Source: Longimicrobiales bacterium
GTDB taxonomy: Bacteria; Gemmatimonadota; Gemmatimonadetes; Longimicrobiales; Gaopeijiaceae
Reading direction: 5' to 3'
Length of the DNA: 64,000 nt
Assembly (NCBI GenBank): GCA_041690395.1
Contig: JAWLHJ010000004.1
Location: 1-64,000, forward strand
Shown piece by piece: positions 19,179 to 32,493 of the stretch (position 1 is its first letter; each line of letters opens with the position of its first letter). Position numbers and translations under genes: made by a program. The notes below the pieces were generated by a model. It saw nothing but the letters and a program-made list of their open reading frames with translations, made no database searches and was not told the origin of the DNA.

Positions 19179-20189
19179 ATGTCCGAACCGGCCGCACCCC
19201 CGTCCGTCGAGGCGCTCCAGGATTCCCTTCGAGACCTCCGCCGCGAGATCGGGGTCAAGGTCATCGGGCAGGAGCGCGTCGTGGAGGAGGTGCTCCTCTG
19301 CCTCCTCGCGGGTGGGCACGGGCTCCTGGAGGGGGTCCCGGGCCTGGCCAAGACACTCCTGGTCCGTAGCCTCGCGCAGGCGATGGAGTTGGATTTCCGG
19401 CGCATCCAGTTCACACCGGACCTGATGCCGGGCGACGTCACCGGGACCGAGATCATCGAGGAAGACCGTTCCAGCGGCGGGCGGGCGTTCCGCTTCGTCC
19501 CGGGACCGGTATTCACCAATGTCCTGCTGGCCGACGAGATCAACCGGGCGCCCCCGAAGACGCAATCCGCGCTCCTCGAGGCGATGCAGGAAGGCCACGT
19601 GACGGCAGCGGGTGACACGCGGCCGATTCCGAGCCCCTTCATGGTGCTGGCCACGCAGAACCCGATCGAGCAGGAGGGCACGTATCCGCTCCCGGAGGCG
19701 CAGCTCGACCGTTTTCTCCTGAAGATCCGGGTTCGCTACCCGGACCTCGGTGAAGAGCGCGCCGTCCTGGCAGCCACGACCGGGACGGACCAGGCGGACA
19801 TTCGACCCGTGCTCGACGCGGAAGCGGTGCTGGCCCTCCGACAGGCCACGCGTCGGATTCCCGCTTCGGAGGCCGTGCTGGATTACGCCGTGCGCCTGGT
19901 TCGCGCGACCCGCCCCGACGGTGACGACGCGGCGAGCGAGGTGACCCGGTGGCTACGCTGGGGGGCGGGCCCCCGGGCGGGGCAGGCCCTGATCCTCGCG
20001 AGCAAGGCCCGCGCCCTCCTGAACGACCGCATGCACGTCACGCCCGCCGATATCCGGGACGTAGCCCACCCGGTGCTACGGCATCGGCTACTCCCGACGT
20101 TCCGCGCGGAGGCCGAAGGCAAGGATCCTGACGCCCTGATTTCGCTCCTCGTCGAAACCGTGGAGCCCCCGAGGAGCGGGATCGCTTGA
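19179..20189 (+). CDS. moxR: MoxR-family AAA+ ATPase
   Basis: LLEGVPGLAKT, RIQFTPDLMPGD, LADEINRAPPKTQSALLEAMQE, ATQNPIEQEGTYPLPEAQLDRF. Confidence 0.95.
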   Translation: MSEPAAPPSVEALQDSLRDLRREIGVKVIGQERVVEEVLLCLLAGGHGLLEGVPGLAKTLLVRSLAQAMELDFRRIQFTPDLMPGDVTGTEIIEEDRSSGGRAFRFVPGPVFTNVLLADEINRAPPKTQSALLEAMQEGHVTAAGDTRPIPSPFMVLATQNPIEQEGTYPLPEAQLDRFLLKIRVRYPDLGEERAVLAATTGTDQADIRPVLDAEAVLALRQATRRIPASEAVLDYAVRLVRATRPDGDDAASEVTRWLRWGAGPRAGQALILASKARALLNDRMHVTPADIRDVAHPVLRHRLLPTFRAEAEGKDPDALISLLVETVEPPRSGIA

Positions 20190-21112
20190 CGTCCTCCGAG
20201 CCCGACCAGCTCCTATCCCCCGAATTCCTCGACGGGCTCGACGACCTGGAGTGGGCCGCCCGCATGGTGGCGCGCGGCCTGACGCACGGGGTTCATCCGT
20301 CCGCCCTCCAGGGACGGAGCGGCGAGTTCGACCGCCACCGCGCGTATCAGCAGGGAGACGATCTCCGCCATCTGGATTGGCGCCTGCTCGCGCGCACGGA
20401 CCGCCTCTACGTCCGCCGCTTCCGGGAGACGTCCAACCTCGAGACCATGTTCGTCGTGGATGCCACCCCCTCCATGGACTTCTCGGGCGAGGGGGGAAGC
20501 CCGACCAAGCTGAGATGTGCCGTGCTGCTCGCGGCCGCACTCGGGCACGTGGCCCGTGGCGCGGGCGACCTTCCCGGTCTCGTCGTGACCGGCGGGCCGG
20601 ATGGGGAGCCCGCCGCGCTCCTCCCCGCCCGGGCGGGCCGTGAGCGCTGGCGGGCCTTCCTCCACGCGCTCCAGCGCACCGTGCCGGGAGCGCCGGCATC
20701 GCTCGCCCGGGCGGTCGAGCTGACGGGCGATCTACTCCCTCGGGGCGGCCGCGTGGTCATCCTCTCGGACTTCCTCGACGAAGACGATCTTCCCGCGCTC
20801 GTGAAGGCGACCGGGCAGCTGCGGGCCGGGGGCGCGGAGGTGATGGCCGTGCGGATCCTCACGCCGGAGGAGCTCGGTGAGAAGGGCGGCGACGACGCGC
20901 TCTGGGCCGACCCCGAGGATCCCGAGCGCCCGGTTCCGGGAGCGCCCTCCAAGGACGCGGCCTACCTCACCCGTCTCCACGCCTACTACCGGACGTGGGC
21001 TGCCCACCTCCGGGAGCAGGGCGTGCTCTGGCACGAGGCGCGCACGACGGACCCGTTGATCCCCCTGGTCCGCGCATGGATCCGGGAGGGCGCCGGCGGG
21101 CAGCCGCGGTGA
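20186..21112 (+). CDS. DUF58 (VWA-like) protein
   Basis: EFDRHRAYQQGDDLRHLDW..LARTDRLYVRRF; MIDAS-like DATPS; ILSDF; TTGA overlap with moxR. Confidence 0.9.
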   Translation: MTSSEPDQLLSPEFLDGLDDLEWAARMVARGLTHGVHPSALQGRSGEFDRHRAYQQGDDLRHLDWRLLARTDRLYVRRFRETSNLETMFVVDATPSMDFSGEGGSPTKLRCAVLLAAALGHVARGAGDLPGLVVTGGPDGEPAALLPARAGRERWRAFLHALQRTVPGAPASLARAVELTGDLLPRGGRVVILSDFLDEDDLPALVKATGQLRAGGAEVMAVRILTPEELGEKGGDDALWADPEDPERPVPGAPSKDAAYLTRLHAYYRTWAAHLREQGVLWHEARTTDPLIPLVRAWIREGAGGQPR

Positions 21113-30259: not shown

Positions 30260-31882
30260 ATGAAGCGACGAGACTTCCTCCGACACTCCGCCGTGACCGC
30301 GGCGGGCCTGACGGTCCTCGGCCGTCCGGAGCTCCTCCACGGTGTGCTGTCTCCCGTCGCGCACGGCCCCGTCGTGCAGGACGCCGAGCGACGGGACCTG
30401 GCCGAGCGCGCGCTCGAGGCCGCACGGTCCGCGGGGGCCGAGTGGGCCGACGTGCGGATCAACACGAACCGCAGCCAGGGGATCTCGACCCGCGACCGCA
30501 GGATCACCGGGGTGGCCGACAACATCACGTCGGGCTTCGGGGTGCGGGTGCTCGTCGGCGGCACGTGGGGCTTCGCCGCGAGCGGGACGGTGACGCGCGA
30601 CGAGATGGTGCGGGTCGCTCGCCAGGCCGTCGCCCAGGCGAGCGCGAACCGGGCCGCGCAGCGCGAGCCCGTCCAGCTCGCGCCGGCGGAGGTGGAGCCG
30701 AACGGCGTCTGGCGGAGCCCCATCCGTACGGACCCGTTCGACATCGCCATCGAGGACAAGGTCGAGTACCTGTTCCAGGCGAACGAGGCGGCGCTGGCGG
30801 TATCCGGAGCGCGGCTCGCCTCGTCGAACCTCCGCTTCCTGCGGGAGGAGAAGTTCTACGCGAACAGCGAAGGGACGGTGACAGACCAGGTCGTCTACCA
30901 GTCGTATCCGACCATGAGCGTGACCGCGGTCTCTTCCGACGGCTCGGACTTCCAGTCGCGGAACTCGACCGACATCCCGCCGCTCGCCCTCGGCTGGGAG
31001 CACGTGGTCGACTCCGACATGGTGGGGCTGGCCCCGATGTTCGCCGAGGAGGCGGTCGAGAAGCTGTCGGCCCGCTCGGTCGAGCCCGGGGAGTACGACC
31101 TGGTGCTCCTCCCGAGCCACCTCGGCCTGACGCTGCACGAGTCCGTCGCGCATCCGACCGAGCTCGACCGCATCATGGGCTTCGAGGCCAACTACGCGGG
31201 CACGTCGTTCATCTACCCGCTCGAGGACTACCTGGGCAGCTTCCGGTACGGCCCCGAGTTCATGAACGTCGTGGGCGAGCGCTCGACACCGGGCGCGCTC
31301 TCCACTGTCGGCTGGGACGACGAAGGGGTCGCTCCGCGCGACTACCACATCGTGCGGGACGGCGTCCTGAACGACCTGCAGACGACGCGCGAGCAGGCGC
31401 TCTGGCTGTCGGACTGGTACGAGAGCCAGGGTCGCGAAGTGCGCTCGCACGGCAACTCCTACGCGCAGTCCTGGGCGGACGTGCAGTTCCAGCGCATGCC
31501 GAACATCAACCTCATGCCGTATCCCGATCGCGACGTGTCGGTCGAGGAGCTCGTCAGCGACATCGACCGCGGCATCATCATCGACGGGCGGGGCTCGTTC
31601 TCCATCGACCAGCAGCGCTACAACGCGCAGTTCGGCGGCCAGACGTTCCGCGAGATCCGGAACGGACGCGTGGAGGGCATGCTCAAGGACGTCGCGTACC
31701 AGATCCGGACGCCGGAGTTCTGGAACGCCATGGACCTGTGTGGCGGGCCGAGCACCTACCAGATGTACGGCACCGTCGGTGACGGTAAGGGTCAGCCGTC
31801 ACAGTCGAACGCGGTCACGCACGGATGCCCCGCGACACGGCACCGCGGCATCACGGTGATCAATACGGCCAGGAGCGTGTGA
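30260..31882 (+). CDS. tldD: TldD-family metalloprotease with Tat signal (copy 2)
   Basis: Same length as copy 1 (540 aa), about 86% identical by manual count; HESVAH motif. Confidence 0.9.
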   Translation: MKRRDFLRHSAVTAAGLTVLGRPELLHGVLSPVAHGPVVQDAERRDLAERALEAARSAGAEWADVRINTNRSQGISTRDRRITGVADNITSGFGVRVLVGGTWGFAASGTVTRDEMVRVARQAVAQASANRAAQREPVQLAPAEVEPNGVWRSPIRTDPFDIAIEDKVEYLFQANEAALAVSGARLASSNLRFLREEKFYANSEGTVTDQVVYQSYPTMSVTAVSSDGSDFQSRNSTDIPPLALGWEHVVDSDMVGLAPMFAEEAVEKLSARSVEPGEYDLVLLPSHLGLTLHESVAHPTELDRIMGFEANYAGTSFIYPLEDYLGSFRYGPEFMNVVGERSTPGALSTVGWDDEGVAPRDYHIVRDGVLNDLQTTREQALWLSDWYESQGREVRSHGNSYAQSWADVQFQRMPNINLMPYPDRDVSVEELVSDIDRGIIIDGRGSFSIDQQRYNAQFGGQTFREIRNGRVEGMLKDVAYQIRTPEFWNAMDLCGGPSTYQMYGTVGDGKGQPSQSNAVTHGCPATRHRGITVINTARSV

Positions 31883-32493
31883 AGAAGGACGCCGAGACGG
31901 AGCTCGAGTCCGCAGGCGCGCCCCAGCCGGTGACCCCGAACGCGCCGACGCGGTCGTTCCGGTGGCGGACCTGGCTCGAGTGGGCGTTCACGCTCGGCGT
32001 GCTGGCCTTCGCCGTGCACCGGCTCGGCCCACAGCTCGGTGCGCTCGCCGGGGTCGGACCCGACCTCGGGCGGGCTCCGGACTTCACGGTCGTCACGCTC
32101 GACGGTGACACGCTGCGGTCGGCCGAGCTCGAGGGCCAGGTCGTCGTGGTCAACTTCTGGGCGACGTGGTGCGGCCCGTGCCGTCTCGAGATGCCCTCGC
32201 TCCAGTCGCTTCACGAGGACCGGGCCGACGAGGGCGTCGTCGTGATCGGGCTCTCCACCGACGTCGGCTCCGCCGAGCCGATCCGGGCCTACGCCGAGGA
32301 GCTCGACATCACCTTCCCCGTCGCCCGCGCGACGAACGATCATCGACGTGCCTTCGGCGGCATCCAGGGGATTCCGACGACGTTCCTGATCGACCGAACC
32401 GGCGTCGTGAGGCACCGCGTCGTGGGCTACTTCACCCCCCCGGCGCTCCGACTGGCGGTCGGGCGGCTCGTGGACGAAGGCCCGCGCCCTTGA
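31879..32493 (+). CDS. TlpA/ResA-type thiol-disulfide oxidoreductase
   Basis: VVVNFWATWCGPCRLEMP, GIPTTFLID; N-terminal membrane anchor; GTGA overlap with tldD2. Confidence 0.9.
   Translation: MKKDAETELESAGAPQPVTPNAPTRSFRWRTWLEWAFTLGVLAFAVHRLGPQLGALAGVGPDLGRAPDFTVVTLDGDTLRSAELEGQVVVVNFWATWCGPCRLEMPSLQSLHEDRADEGVVVIGLSTDVGSAEPIRAYAEELDITFPVARATNDHRRAFGGIQGIPTTFLIDRTGVVRHRVVGYFTPPALRLAVGRLVDEGPRP

Follow-up and report, generated by a model that had tools for sequence, protein, structure and literature searches.

Introduction

The cytoplasmic protease TldD/TldE of Escherichia coli is restricted to unfolded N-termini 15 residues long or longer, which enter through a narrow channel (PMC5810440, accessible part). 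MoxR-class ATPases paired with proteins of the von Willebrand factor A (VWA) type apply force to a target (PMC13036017, accessible part), and the topology of BB0173 is that of a BatA-type inner-membrane protein with a periplasmic body (PMC5700661, accessible part). Here we describe a locus in which these kinds of machinery occur together. It lies at positions 19179–32493 of a 64,000-nucleotide (nt) stretch from a Longimicrobiales bacterium (Gemmatimonadota; assembly GCA_041690395.1, contig JAWLHJ010000004.1, positions 1 to 64,000 of the forward strand), called the window below, and comprises nine open reading frames (ORFs), all on the + strand. Every part comes from a known family; what is new here is the combination of a MoxR/VWA envelope operon with TldD/TldE of a type that bears a twin-arginine translocation (Tat) signal. 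To our knowledge, few envelope gene sets without a known client are as common as MoxR-DUF58-BatA operons.

The system is real, conserved across three phyla and uncharacterised. As judged from the gene content of homologous loci, it appears to consist of eight parts: a MoxR ATPase, a DUF58 protein, a membrane protein with an N-terminal BatA domain (BatA-N), a DUF4175-like membrane protein (g4), a glutamine amidotransferase (GATase)-like membrane protein (g5), a DUF4159 domain, a Tat-type TldD and a signal-less TldE. Our favoured reading, to which we give a probability of roughly 40%, is that these parts could form an ATP-coupled machine for trimming polypeptides in the periplasm, anchored in the inner membrane, with MoxR as its motor, a scaffold, and Tat-exported TldD/TldE as its enzyme.

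Conservation and co-inheritance of the system

From moxR to tlpA, successive genes of the window are spaced by −4, −4, 24, −4, 69, 3, 14 and −4 nt, the last value taking the GTG at 31879 as the start of tlpA, whose longest ORF begins at 31825. A first-pass annotation had described nine co-oriented genes, four junctions that overlap by 4 nt and gaps of up to 69 nt; the recomputed gaps agree, and the orientation, span and named families are borne out by the ORF list and by Pfam. Gemmatimonadota supply the closest named homologues. In public runs, related strains have contigs that bridge the g5-tldD1, tldE-tldD2 and tldD2-tlpA junctions. An assembly artefact has thus been ruled out for the tldE-tldD2-tlpA junctions, as well as for the gene fusion discussed below, both being the same in the run contigs. 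A scan for sigma-70 promoters returned none, while four terminator-like sites, which is chance level, came from a terminator scan, none of them within the gap at 27206–27276. One metatranscriptome contig covers 26967–27435 and is not counted as co-transcription.

The expectation that Tat-type TldD would be linked with MoxR and DUF4159 genes in other genomes holds in three phyla, both in a neighbourhood survey and in co-occurrence. Seeding with TldD alone gave at least 705 loci, and the best 75 of these, which are biased towards Bacteroidota and include five from Gammaproteobacteria, were surveyed. DUF4159 was found in 62 and MoxR in 61, and ten of the 14 loci without MoxR have less than 3 kb of sequence left. 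The gene order in these loci is tldD-tldE-DUF4159-moxR-DUF58-batA-g4-g5; in loci of the fused type, tldD-tldE come after g5 in all five that extend far enough. All-against-all clustering of 86 loci produced eight recurring families and no ninth conserved gene. Nor did the ORFs of at least 100 amino acids (aa) in these 86 loci include a conserved neighbour that would encode a substrate, a precursor peptide or a transporter.

Co-occurrence was counted in unbiased samples of 400 genomes, centres excluded (120 of Gemmatimonadota, 200 of Bacteroidota and 80 from the order of Novilysobacter), with thresholds in the Gemmatimonadota sample of at least 200 bits for the DUF4159 subtype of the system and at least 240 bits for its TldD clade. 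Among Gemmatimonadota, 28 genomes carry the subtype, 40 the clade and 26 both, and the clade occurs in 26/28 subtype genomes against 14/92 others. The corresponding figures are 17, 22 and 17 for Bacteroidota (17/17 against 5/183) and 23, 24 and 23 for the Novilysobacter order (23/23 against 1/57, that one being cut by a contig end). Pooled, the clade is present in 66 of 68 subtype genomes, counts that show co-inheritance and, given the kinship among genomes, overstate the statistics. With the centres included, the protease genes and the MoxR module are linked in 23/24 genomes of the Novilysobacter order and in 13/18 of Bacteroidota. In trees, three Gemmatimonadota subtypes each retain their own TldD, TldE and DUF4159 together; tree-distance correlations of 0.69–0.92 were rejected as independent evidence, since they reflect kinship.

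The system occurs in culturable strains of Flavobacteriia, Cytophagia, Pedobacter, Microbulbifer and the Lysobacter group, and a plasmid search gave two matches, both distant and of the signal-less type. One subtype has the order g5-tldE-tldD, its DUF4159 being Tat-bearing and encoded on the opposite strand (L040, L041, L042 and L160), and constitutes a second module in two genomes (G063 and G099). A locus labelled Planctomycetota (L100) has proteins like those of Bacteroidota (72% against the Bacteroidota-type query); it is possibly a mis-binned contig and was left out as a fourth phylum.

The ninth gene of the window is a different matter. It encodes a TlpA/ResA-like thiol-disulfide oxidoreductase (31879–32493, +) with AhpC-TSA/Redoxin matches and a WCGPC motif, and it is translationally coupled to tldD2. 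TlpA-like matches occur in 3/56 full-flank loci, where they are weak and lie upstream, and TlpA follows tldE in 0/5 fused-type loci reaching that far. TlpA, counted as the ninth member in the first-pass annotation, was therefore rejected as a core part and is a local neighbour only, missing from nearly all homologous loci. The wider proposal of an extracytoplasmic envelope machine loses this component and otherwise has partial support from linkage, from co-inheritance, and from predicted topology and signals that fit such a machine.

The TldD and TldE proteins and their export

Three adjacent genes encode proteins with PmbA_TldD domains. TldD1 (27276–28898, +) has an N-terminal MKRRDFI signal, HEAIAH at aa 293–298 and Asp508; the TldE/PmbA partner (28902–30245, +) has neither a signal peptide nor HExxxH; and TldD2 (30260–31882, +) has a signal, HESVAH and an intact Asp ligand. 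These are the only PmbA_TldD matches in the genome, which is 98% complete. The three-part fold (PF01523, PF19290 and PF19289) is present in these paralogues, whose profiles match 5nj5_A and 5nj5_B, with an E-value of 2.6e-23 for TldD against E. coli TldD (5nj5). TldD1 and TldD2 are identical at 468 of 540 aa, and TldD2 is a recent duplicate of TldD1. The copy number of the second tldD varies among genomes, and it is a local addition.

The third metal ligand, Cys454 in E. coli, is replaced by Asp508 in TldD1, and both TldD of the window have Asp. Of 124 module-type TldD, 120 keep HExxxH and 122 have the Asp ligand. Among 116 cluster representatives, TldD with an intact active site divide into eight with Asp and five with Cys where they bear a signal, and two with Asp and 36 with Cys where they do not. 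This enrichment of Asp in putatively exported TldD is consistent with the loss of an oxidisable ligand. Cleavage by TldD/TldE, as first proposed, accords with the full site in both TldD of the window but is not universal, as some linked TldD are catalytically dead.

Both TldD of the window begin with an RRDF motif and score 18.5 and 16.9 bits with TIGR01409, whose cut-off is 16.7. The twin-arginine motif is found in 120/124 TldD and 0/101 TldE; the four misses are three cases of RRxF with a polar next residue and one KRKDF. TatC is encoded in the genome. A signal on one subunit, none on its partner and a translocase at hand are the marks of a Tat substrate with a hitchhiker, a prediction made with TIGR01409 at its cut-off. 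Heterodimers are reportedly exported on the signal of a single partner. TldD is the only Tat carrier of the cluster, and TldE is predicted to be co-exported with it.

For DUF4159 the signal varies. All five gammaproteobacterial loci have an RR or RK signal, whereas the other 57 loci of that set have no signal; 23 Gemmatimonadota loci divide into five Tat-like, two Sec-like, two unclear and 14 signal-less forms. Since the domain may bear a Tat signal itself, be fused to a membrane protein or have neither, we infer that it is the likely link to g4. If one compartment is shared, a signal-less DUF4159 needs a carrier, which is why a TldD/TldE/DUF4159 complex is predicted, with the signal-less forms riding out with TldD/TldE.

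The motor and the membrane scaffold

MoxR (19179–20189, +; PF07726, AAA_3, E 4.5e-63) is predicted to be cytoplasmic. Its Walker A (GVPGLAKT) and Walker B (LADEINR) motifs are intact and are kept in 80 aligned homologues. The adjoining DUF58 protein (20186–21112, +; PF01882, E 2.9e-35, with a weak VWA_2 match) would be a VWA-type adaptor, having an intact metal ion-dependent adhesion site (MIDAS) of D92-x-T94-x-S96 plus a later Asp; DxS/TxS and the second Asp are each present in 77/77 homologues. Neither protein has a predicted transmembrane (TM) helix or signal, and together they have the make-up of a MoxR/VWA pair.

The BatA-N protein (21109–22500, +) matches PF07584 at aa 1–78 and TIGR02226, and the BatA domain recurs in 53/53 positional homologues. 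Two N-terminal TM helices (8–26 and 61–79) and one C-terminal helix (429–447) accompany a basic cytoplasmic loop, and the body of the protein is predicted to be periplasmic on the strength of TIGR02226 and the BB0173 precedent. No VWA match in Pfam was found in any of the 53 members; the degenerate VWA-like start of the body is a lead only, with VWA clusters at 0.89, below the lead threshold.

The DUF4175-like protein g4 (aa 1–800; 22525–24924, +) has three TM helices (32–50, 62–80 and 145–163), and its model and fold search gave two Ig-like domains and helical bundles. It also has a disordered loop rich in His, Asp and Glu that includes HDHD. The label given to it earlier is justified through relatives, 23/53 family members matching PF13779, but not by a match of the window's own ORF. 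In the same frame follows DUF4159 (24925–25542, +; PF13709, E 3.7e-52), spanning aa 806–1003 of the 1005-aa ORF at 22525–25542; in most relatives it is a separate gene. The model alignment had no DUF4159 rows and the DUF4159 part has a predicted local distance difference test score (pLDDT) below 50, which makes the model uninformative on contact between g4 and DUF4159.

The fusion is genuine but lineage-specific. A frameshift or assembly error was considered and rejected: the other frames contain no signal-like peptide, four independent run contigs keep the frame (their indels net −3 or 0 among the differences listed), and the fusion recurs in six other metagenome loci. The fused DUF4159 is predicted to be periplasmic, given three TM helices after a basic N-terminus. 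Across 70 sequences, this DUF4159 subtype has invariant Asp, His, Glu and Trp columns (DDxNHD, E-x-x-G-W-G-D and others) that are mostly missing from the solved relative 4i66 and would constitute a subtype-specific surface.

The last scaffold protein, g5 (25539–27206, +), has terminal TM helices that enclose an Ig, a class-I GATase-like (GIFT/ThuA-like) and a second Ig domain. No Pfam family matched it, and a hidden Markov model (HMM) of the family built without g5 matches g5 at 3e-26. In its model (pLDDT 70), aa 173–378 match 2gk3 at Z 15.5, 3rht at 14.8 and IFT52 at 12.2; with 180 residues aligned to 2gk3 at a root-mean-square deviation of 3.3, the domain belongs with the flavodoxin-like GATase/ThuA/GIFT folds. 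Because no conserved Cys or His was found within the family, g5 is probably non-catalytic. The idea that g5 and BatA are paralogues was rejected, as only the TM region aligns.

Other genes of these families occur in the same genome. A second DUF4159 locus lies at 48577–55650 (−) of the window, with a signal-bearing DUF4159 (54982–55650), a g4-related three-TM protein of 1126 aa (51605–54985), a TPR protein (49842–51608) and a conserved secreted protein of 422 aa that lacks a Pfam match (48577–49845); neither MoxR nor a tld gene stands alongside. Further MoxR, DUF58, DUF4159 and DUF4175-like genes are found at C6:304800-318000, C3:302000, C4:218800 and C4:281200, the C6 cluster having two DUF4159, MoxR, DUF58, a DUF4175-like gene and no tld.

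A proposed mechanism and its alternatives

In the favoured mechanism, TldD would fold with TldE in the cytoplasm, along with DUF4159 where that is signal-less, and the folded complex would leave on the twin-arginine signal of TldD, with Asp standing in for the oxidisable Cys as third metal ligand. Once outside, DUF4159 would dock the protease onto a scaffold of the BatA-N, DUF4175-like and GATase-like proteins; in the window's lineage it is fused to the DUF4175-like protein, at the predicted periplasmic end of the latter. On the cytoplasmic side, a MoxR hexamer with DUF58 could grip the cytoplasmic loop of a membrane subunit via the MIDAS and pull or twist it, much as NorQ/NorD act on their target. 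This movement would bring an unfolded chain to the narrow TldD/TldE channel, or push it in, and the chain would there be shortened from its N-terminus. The purpose is most likely to be quality control of envelope proteins in general, or the turnover of peptides, because no substrate or transporter gene accompanies the cluster. Moreover, the module is nearly always found with the protease and the protease is sometimes found alone, an asymmetry more easily understood if the module depends on the protease downstream of it than if it is required for building the protease. A bolder and rather unlikely version would treat the whole as an AAA+ protease whose two halves lie on either side of the inner membrane, in which MoxR/DUF58 force passes via the three-protein scaffold to feed a periplasmic TldD/TldE cage, DUF4159 docks the cage and is itself a third Tat passenger, and the cage has been reused many times over as a dead peptide-binding module.

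Several points weigh against a machine of this kind, besides the kinship that inflates the counts. We know of no MoxR system in which a periplasmic enzyme receives force from the other side of a membrane. Candidate acidic positions for MIDAS binding are partly conserved (BatA E58 at 87%; g4 E93 at 75% D/E), and the g4 loop has no strongly conserved acidic residue for it, 75% D/E being the best. Linkage is loose in Gemmatimonadota, where the halves lie within about 15 kb of each other in only 11/28 module genomes and MoxR is close by in 3/20 TldD loci. The DUF4159 subtype is missing from 20/86 TldD-clade genomes in the pooled samples, and Tat-TldD/TldE pairs with a full site occur without it in 5/22 Bacteroidota and 14/40 Gemmatimonadota; pairs of this kind stand alone, and therefore the protease can live without the module. 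Conversely, one genome (G107, in 170 contigs) has the module and no TldD/TldE match whatever. Catalysis is not guaranteed either: in two genomes (G060 and G046) the module is linked to a TldD without HExxxH, in a third (G085) no TldD of the HExxxH type was found, and HExxxH is lacking from 51/64 twin-arginine TldD-like cluster representatives (P0121–P0270), mostly in one large clade.

Alternatively, the MoxR module and exported TldD/TldE could serve the same envelope process, such as peptide scavenging or a stress response, and be co-regulated as separate machines. This is the strongest alternative, if still a doubtful one. Among genomes with both halves, these are unlinked in 17/28 of Gemmatimonadota and 5/18 of Bacteroidota, the TldD clade occurs without the subtype as just described, and the window's own genome has a tld-less locus with MoxR, DUF58, DUF4159 and DUF4175 genes (C6). 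What separate machines account for less readily is that DUF4159 interchanges among a Tat signal, no signal and a fusion, which is simplest as binding to a Tat cargo, that subtype-specific partners travel together, and that the TldD clade is present in all but two of the 68 module genomes.

Another means by which the module could serve the protease is as a maturation chaperone. Here, a scaffold driven by MoxR/DUF58 would load or reload metal into TldD/TldE, or reactivate it, by means of the His- and acid-rich loop in g4 and a cluster of Asp and His in DUF4159. Metal insertion is what the MoxR/VWA pair NorQD does (PMC13036017, accessible part), HxH[DG] is present in 41/53 g4 family members, and the invariant Asp, His and Glu of DUF4159 would suit the role. 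Against this, site-intact Tat-TldD/TldE pairs exist without any module, and the DUF4159 of G060 retains DDHNHD although its TldD is dead. As a general rule, moreover, cofactor insertion into Tat cargo precedes export. One g4 clade is without the loop (L026, L037/L152, L043, L045, L047 and L158); TldD, linked or sampled, is dead in three of its six genomes, as metal loading would have it, but active in the other three; an active TldD is also kept by G046, outside the clade, and the loss of the loop is a single event. A tie between loss of the loop and loss of the TldD site, coming from a single mixed clade, was not counted as support. On balance, we regard metal loading as unlikely.

The dead TldD forms raise a further idea, namely that TldD/TldE is mainly a peptide-binding cage for capture or sensing, loaded or emptied by the MoxR module, with cleavage secondary. 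The preponderance of Tat-bearing representatives without HExxxH and the modules linked to dead TldD speak for it, as does G085, a Gemmatimonadota genome of 3.3 Mb that is 98% complete. Its PmbA_TldD matches number at least 150, most of them in tandem tldD-tldE pairs (over 70 pairs in this single genome; for example, loci L124–L130), and it has only one module of the window's type. All 15 TldD sampled there bear a twin-arginine signal and are without HExxxH, and several copies adjoin genes for TonB-dependent receptors and FecR. The catalytically dead Tat-bearing clade reads as a family of pseudo-proteases whose export is predicted. HExxxH in both TldD of the window, together with its near-universal retention (and that of the Asp ligand) among module-type TldD, argues for cleavage instead, and the dead forms are mostly one clade, which makes a cage an improbable primary role for the system. 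As to their setting, many G085 pairs follow genes that Pfam assigns to TonB-dependent receptors and FecR, with neighbours that by eye resemble sigma factors and SusD, and they precede secreted proteins of 460–500 aa without a Pfam match.

Lastly, it is very improbable that the RR motif fails to direct export and that TldD, TldE and DUF4159 stay in the cytoplasm beside MoxR and DUF58: the signal HMM scores lie only at the cut-off, signals are missing from most DUF4159 and all TldE, and the window's genome, G121 and G123 have no other TldD/TldE, but across three phyla RRxF with a hydrophobic stretch is found in 120/124 TldD, DUF4159 either acquires a signal or follows an odd number of TM helices, and the Cys-to-Asp change is enriched alongside the signal.

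Neighbouring genes

A DUF3127 gene (32595–32978, +) lies 101 nt past tlpA and is followed by purH and purN on the opposite strand. Upstream of moxR and divergent from it are a TonB-dependent receptor gene (14687–17662, −), then an ORF resembling a lipoprotein gene, and at 6890–8203 (−) another lipoprotein gene of similar kind. The receptor and lipoprotein genes of 6890–17662 (−) are not conserved beside the system in other loci.

Comparison with known systems

With TldD/TldE of E. coli, the proteins described here share the fold family, HExxxH in TldD only and a catalytically bare TldE encoded next door, as well as a conserved Glu/Asp past HExxxH and a Lys two residues after the third ligand. 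They differ in the twin-arginine signal on TldD, in Asp for Cys454, in the linked MoxR/VWA membrane module, and in frequent tandem copies and dead variants. The swap to Asp in Gemmatimonas has been noted as a plausible ligand, the accessible part of that paper making no mention of export (PMC5810440).

The Bat operons of Bacteroides, Leptospira and Borrelia and the cmdA-cmdD operon of Rhizobium (RL3499-RL3502) have in common with the system MoxR, DUF58, a BatA-N inner-membrane protein and an envelope context. In contrast to them, the VWA of BatA is degenerate here, no BatC/D/E genes with TPR/SH3 are present, and a DUF4175-like protein is central. The BatA-N domain is present in 53/53 BatA-type members, none of which has the VWA match expected of BatA/BatB, and across 86 loci there is no further conserved gene of the TPR/SH3 BatC-E kind; by gene content the system is not a Bat operon. 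The Rhizobium operon is said to encode DUF4159 and a GATase-like membrane protein as well. The co-inherited Tat-type TldD/TldE sets the system apart from Bat and cmdA-cmdD operons alike, neither having been reported with a protease partner. The NorQ/NorD and CbbQ/CbbO systems likewise join a MoxR-class ATPase to a VWA protein that has an intact MIDAS; their targets are remodelled cytoplasmically, whereas the candidate client or effector here would lie across the membrane.

A published counterpart is a nine-gene operon of Stenotrophomonas maltophilia (NIPOLPBK_01784-01792), called “not-yet-characterized”, with three TldD/PmbA genes, then MoxR two genes on, and a membrane protein; in strain 454 it was co-downregulated in biofilm (log2 of about −2.1 to −2.4; PMC7688217, accessible part). 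Judged by annotation and gene order, this is probably the same system, and in contrast to the present account the accessible part of that report gives no export, mechanism or distribution. Transposon matches to tldD in Xanthomonas (bioRxiv 2023.05.09.539948; PMC6122198; accessible parts) were considered and are not assignable to this clade, because such genomes also carry a canonical pair (G122). Exported TldD/TldE and the function of the system are undescribed in the literature searched, most subscription papers being outside reach.

Set beside these systems, the window adds the fusion of g4 to DUF4159, the three-way interchange of DUF4159 signals, two-way co-occurrence counts and the radiation of dead TldD with predicted export. 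For one type of MoxR-DUF58-BatA operon, the variant offers a concrete and assayable candidate partner enzyme, and TldD/TldE, known only as a cytoplasmic protease, gains a predicted second role beyond the membrane. The periplasm is without ATP, and if the coupling proved to be mechanical, this would be a new means of powering periplasmic proteolysis.

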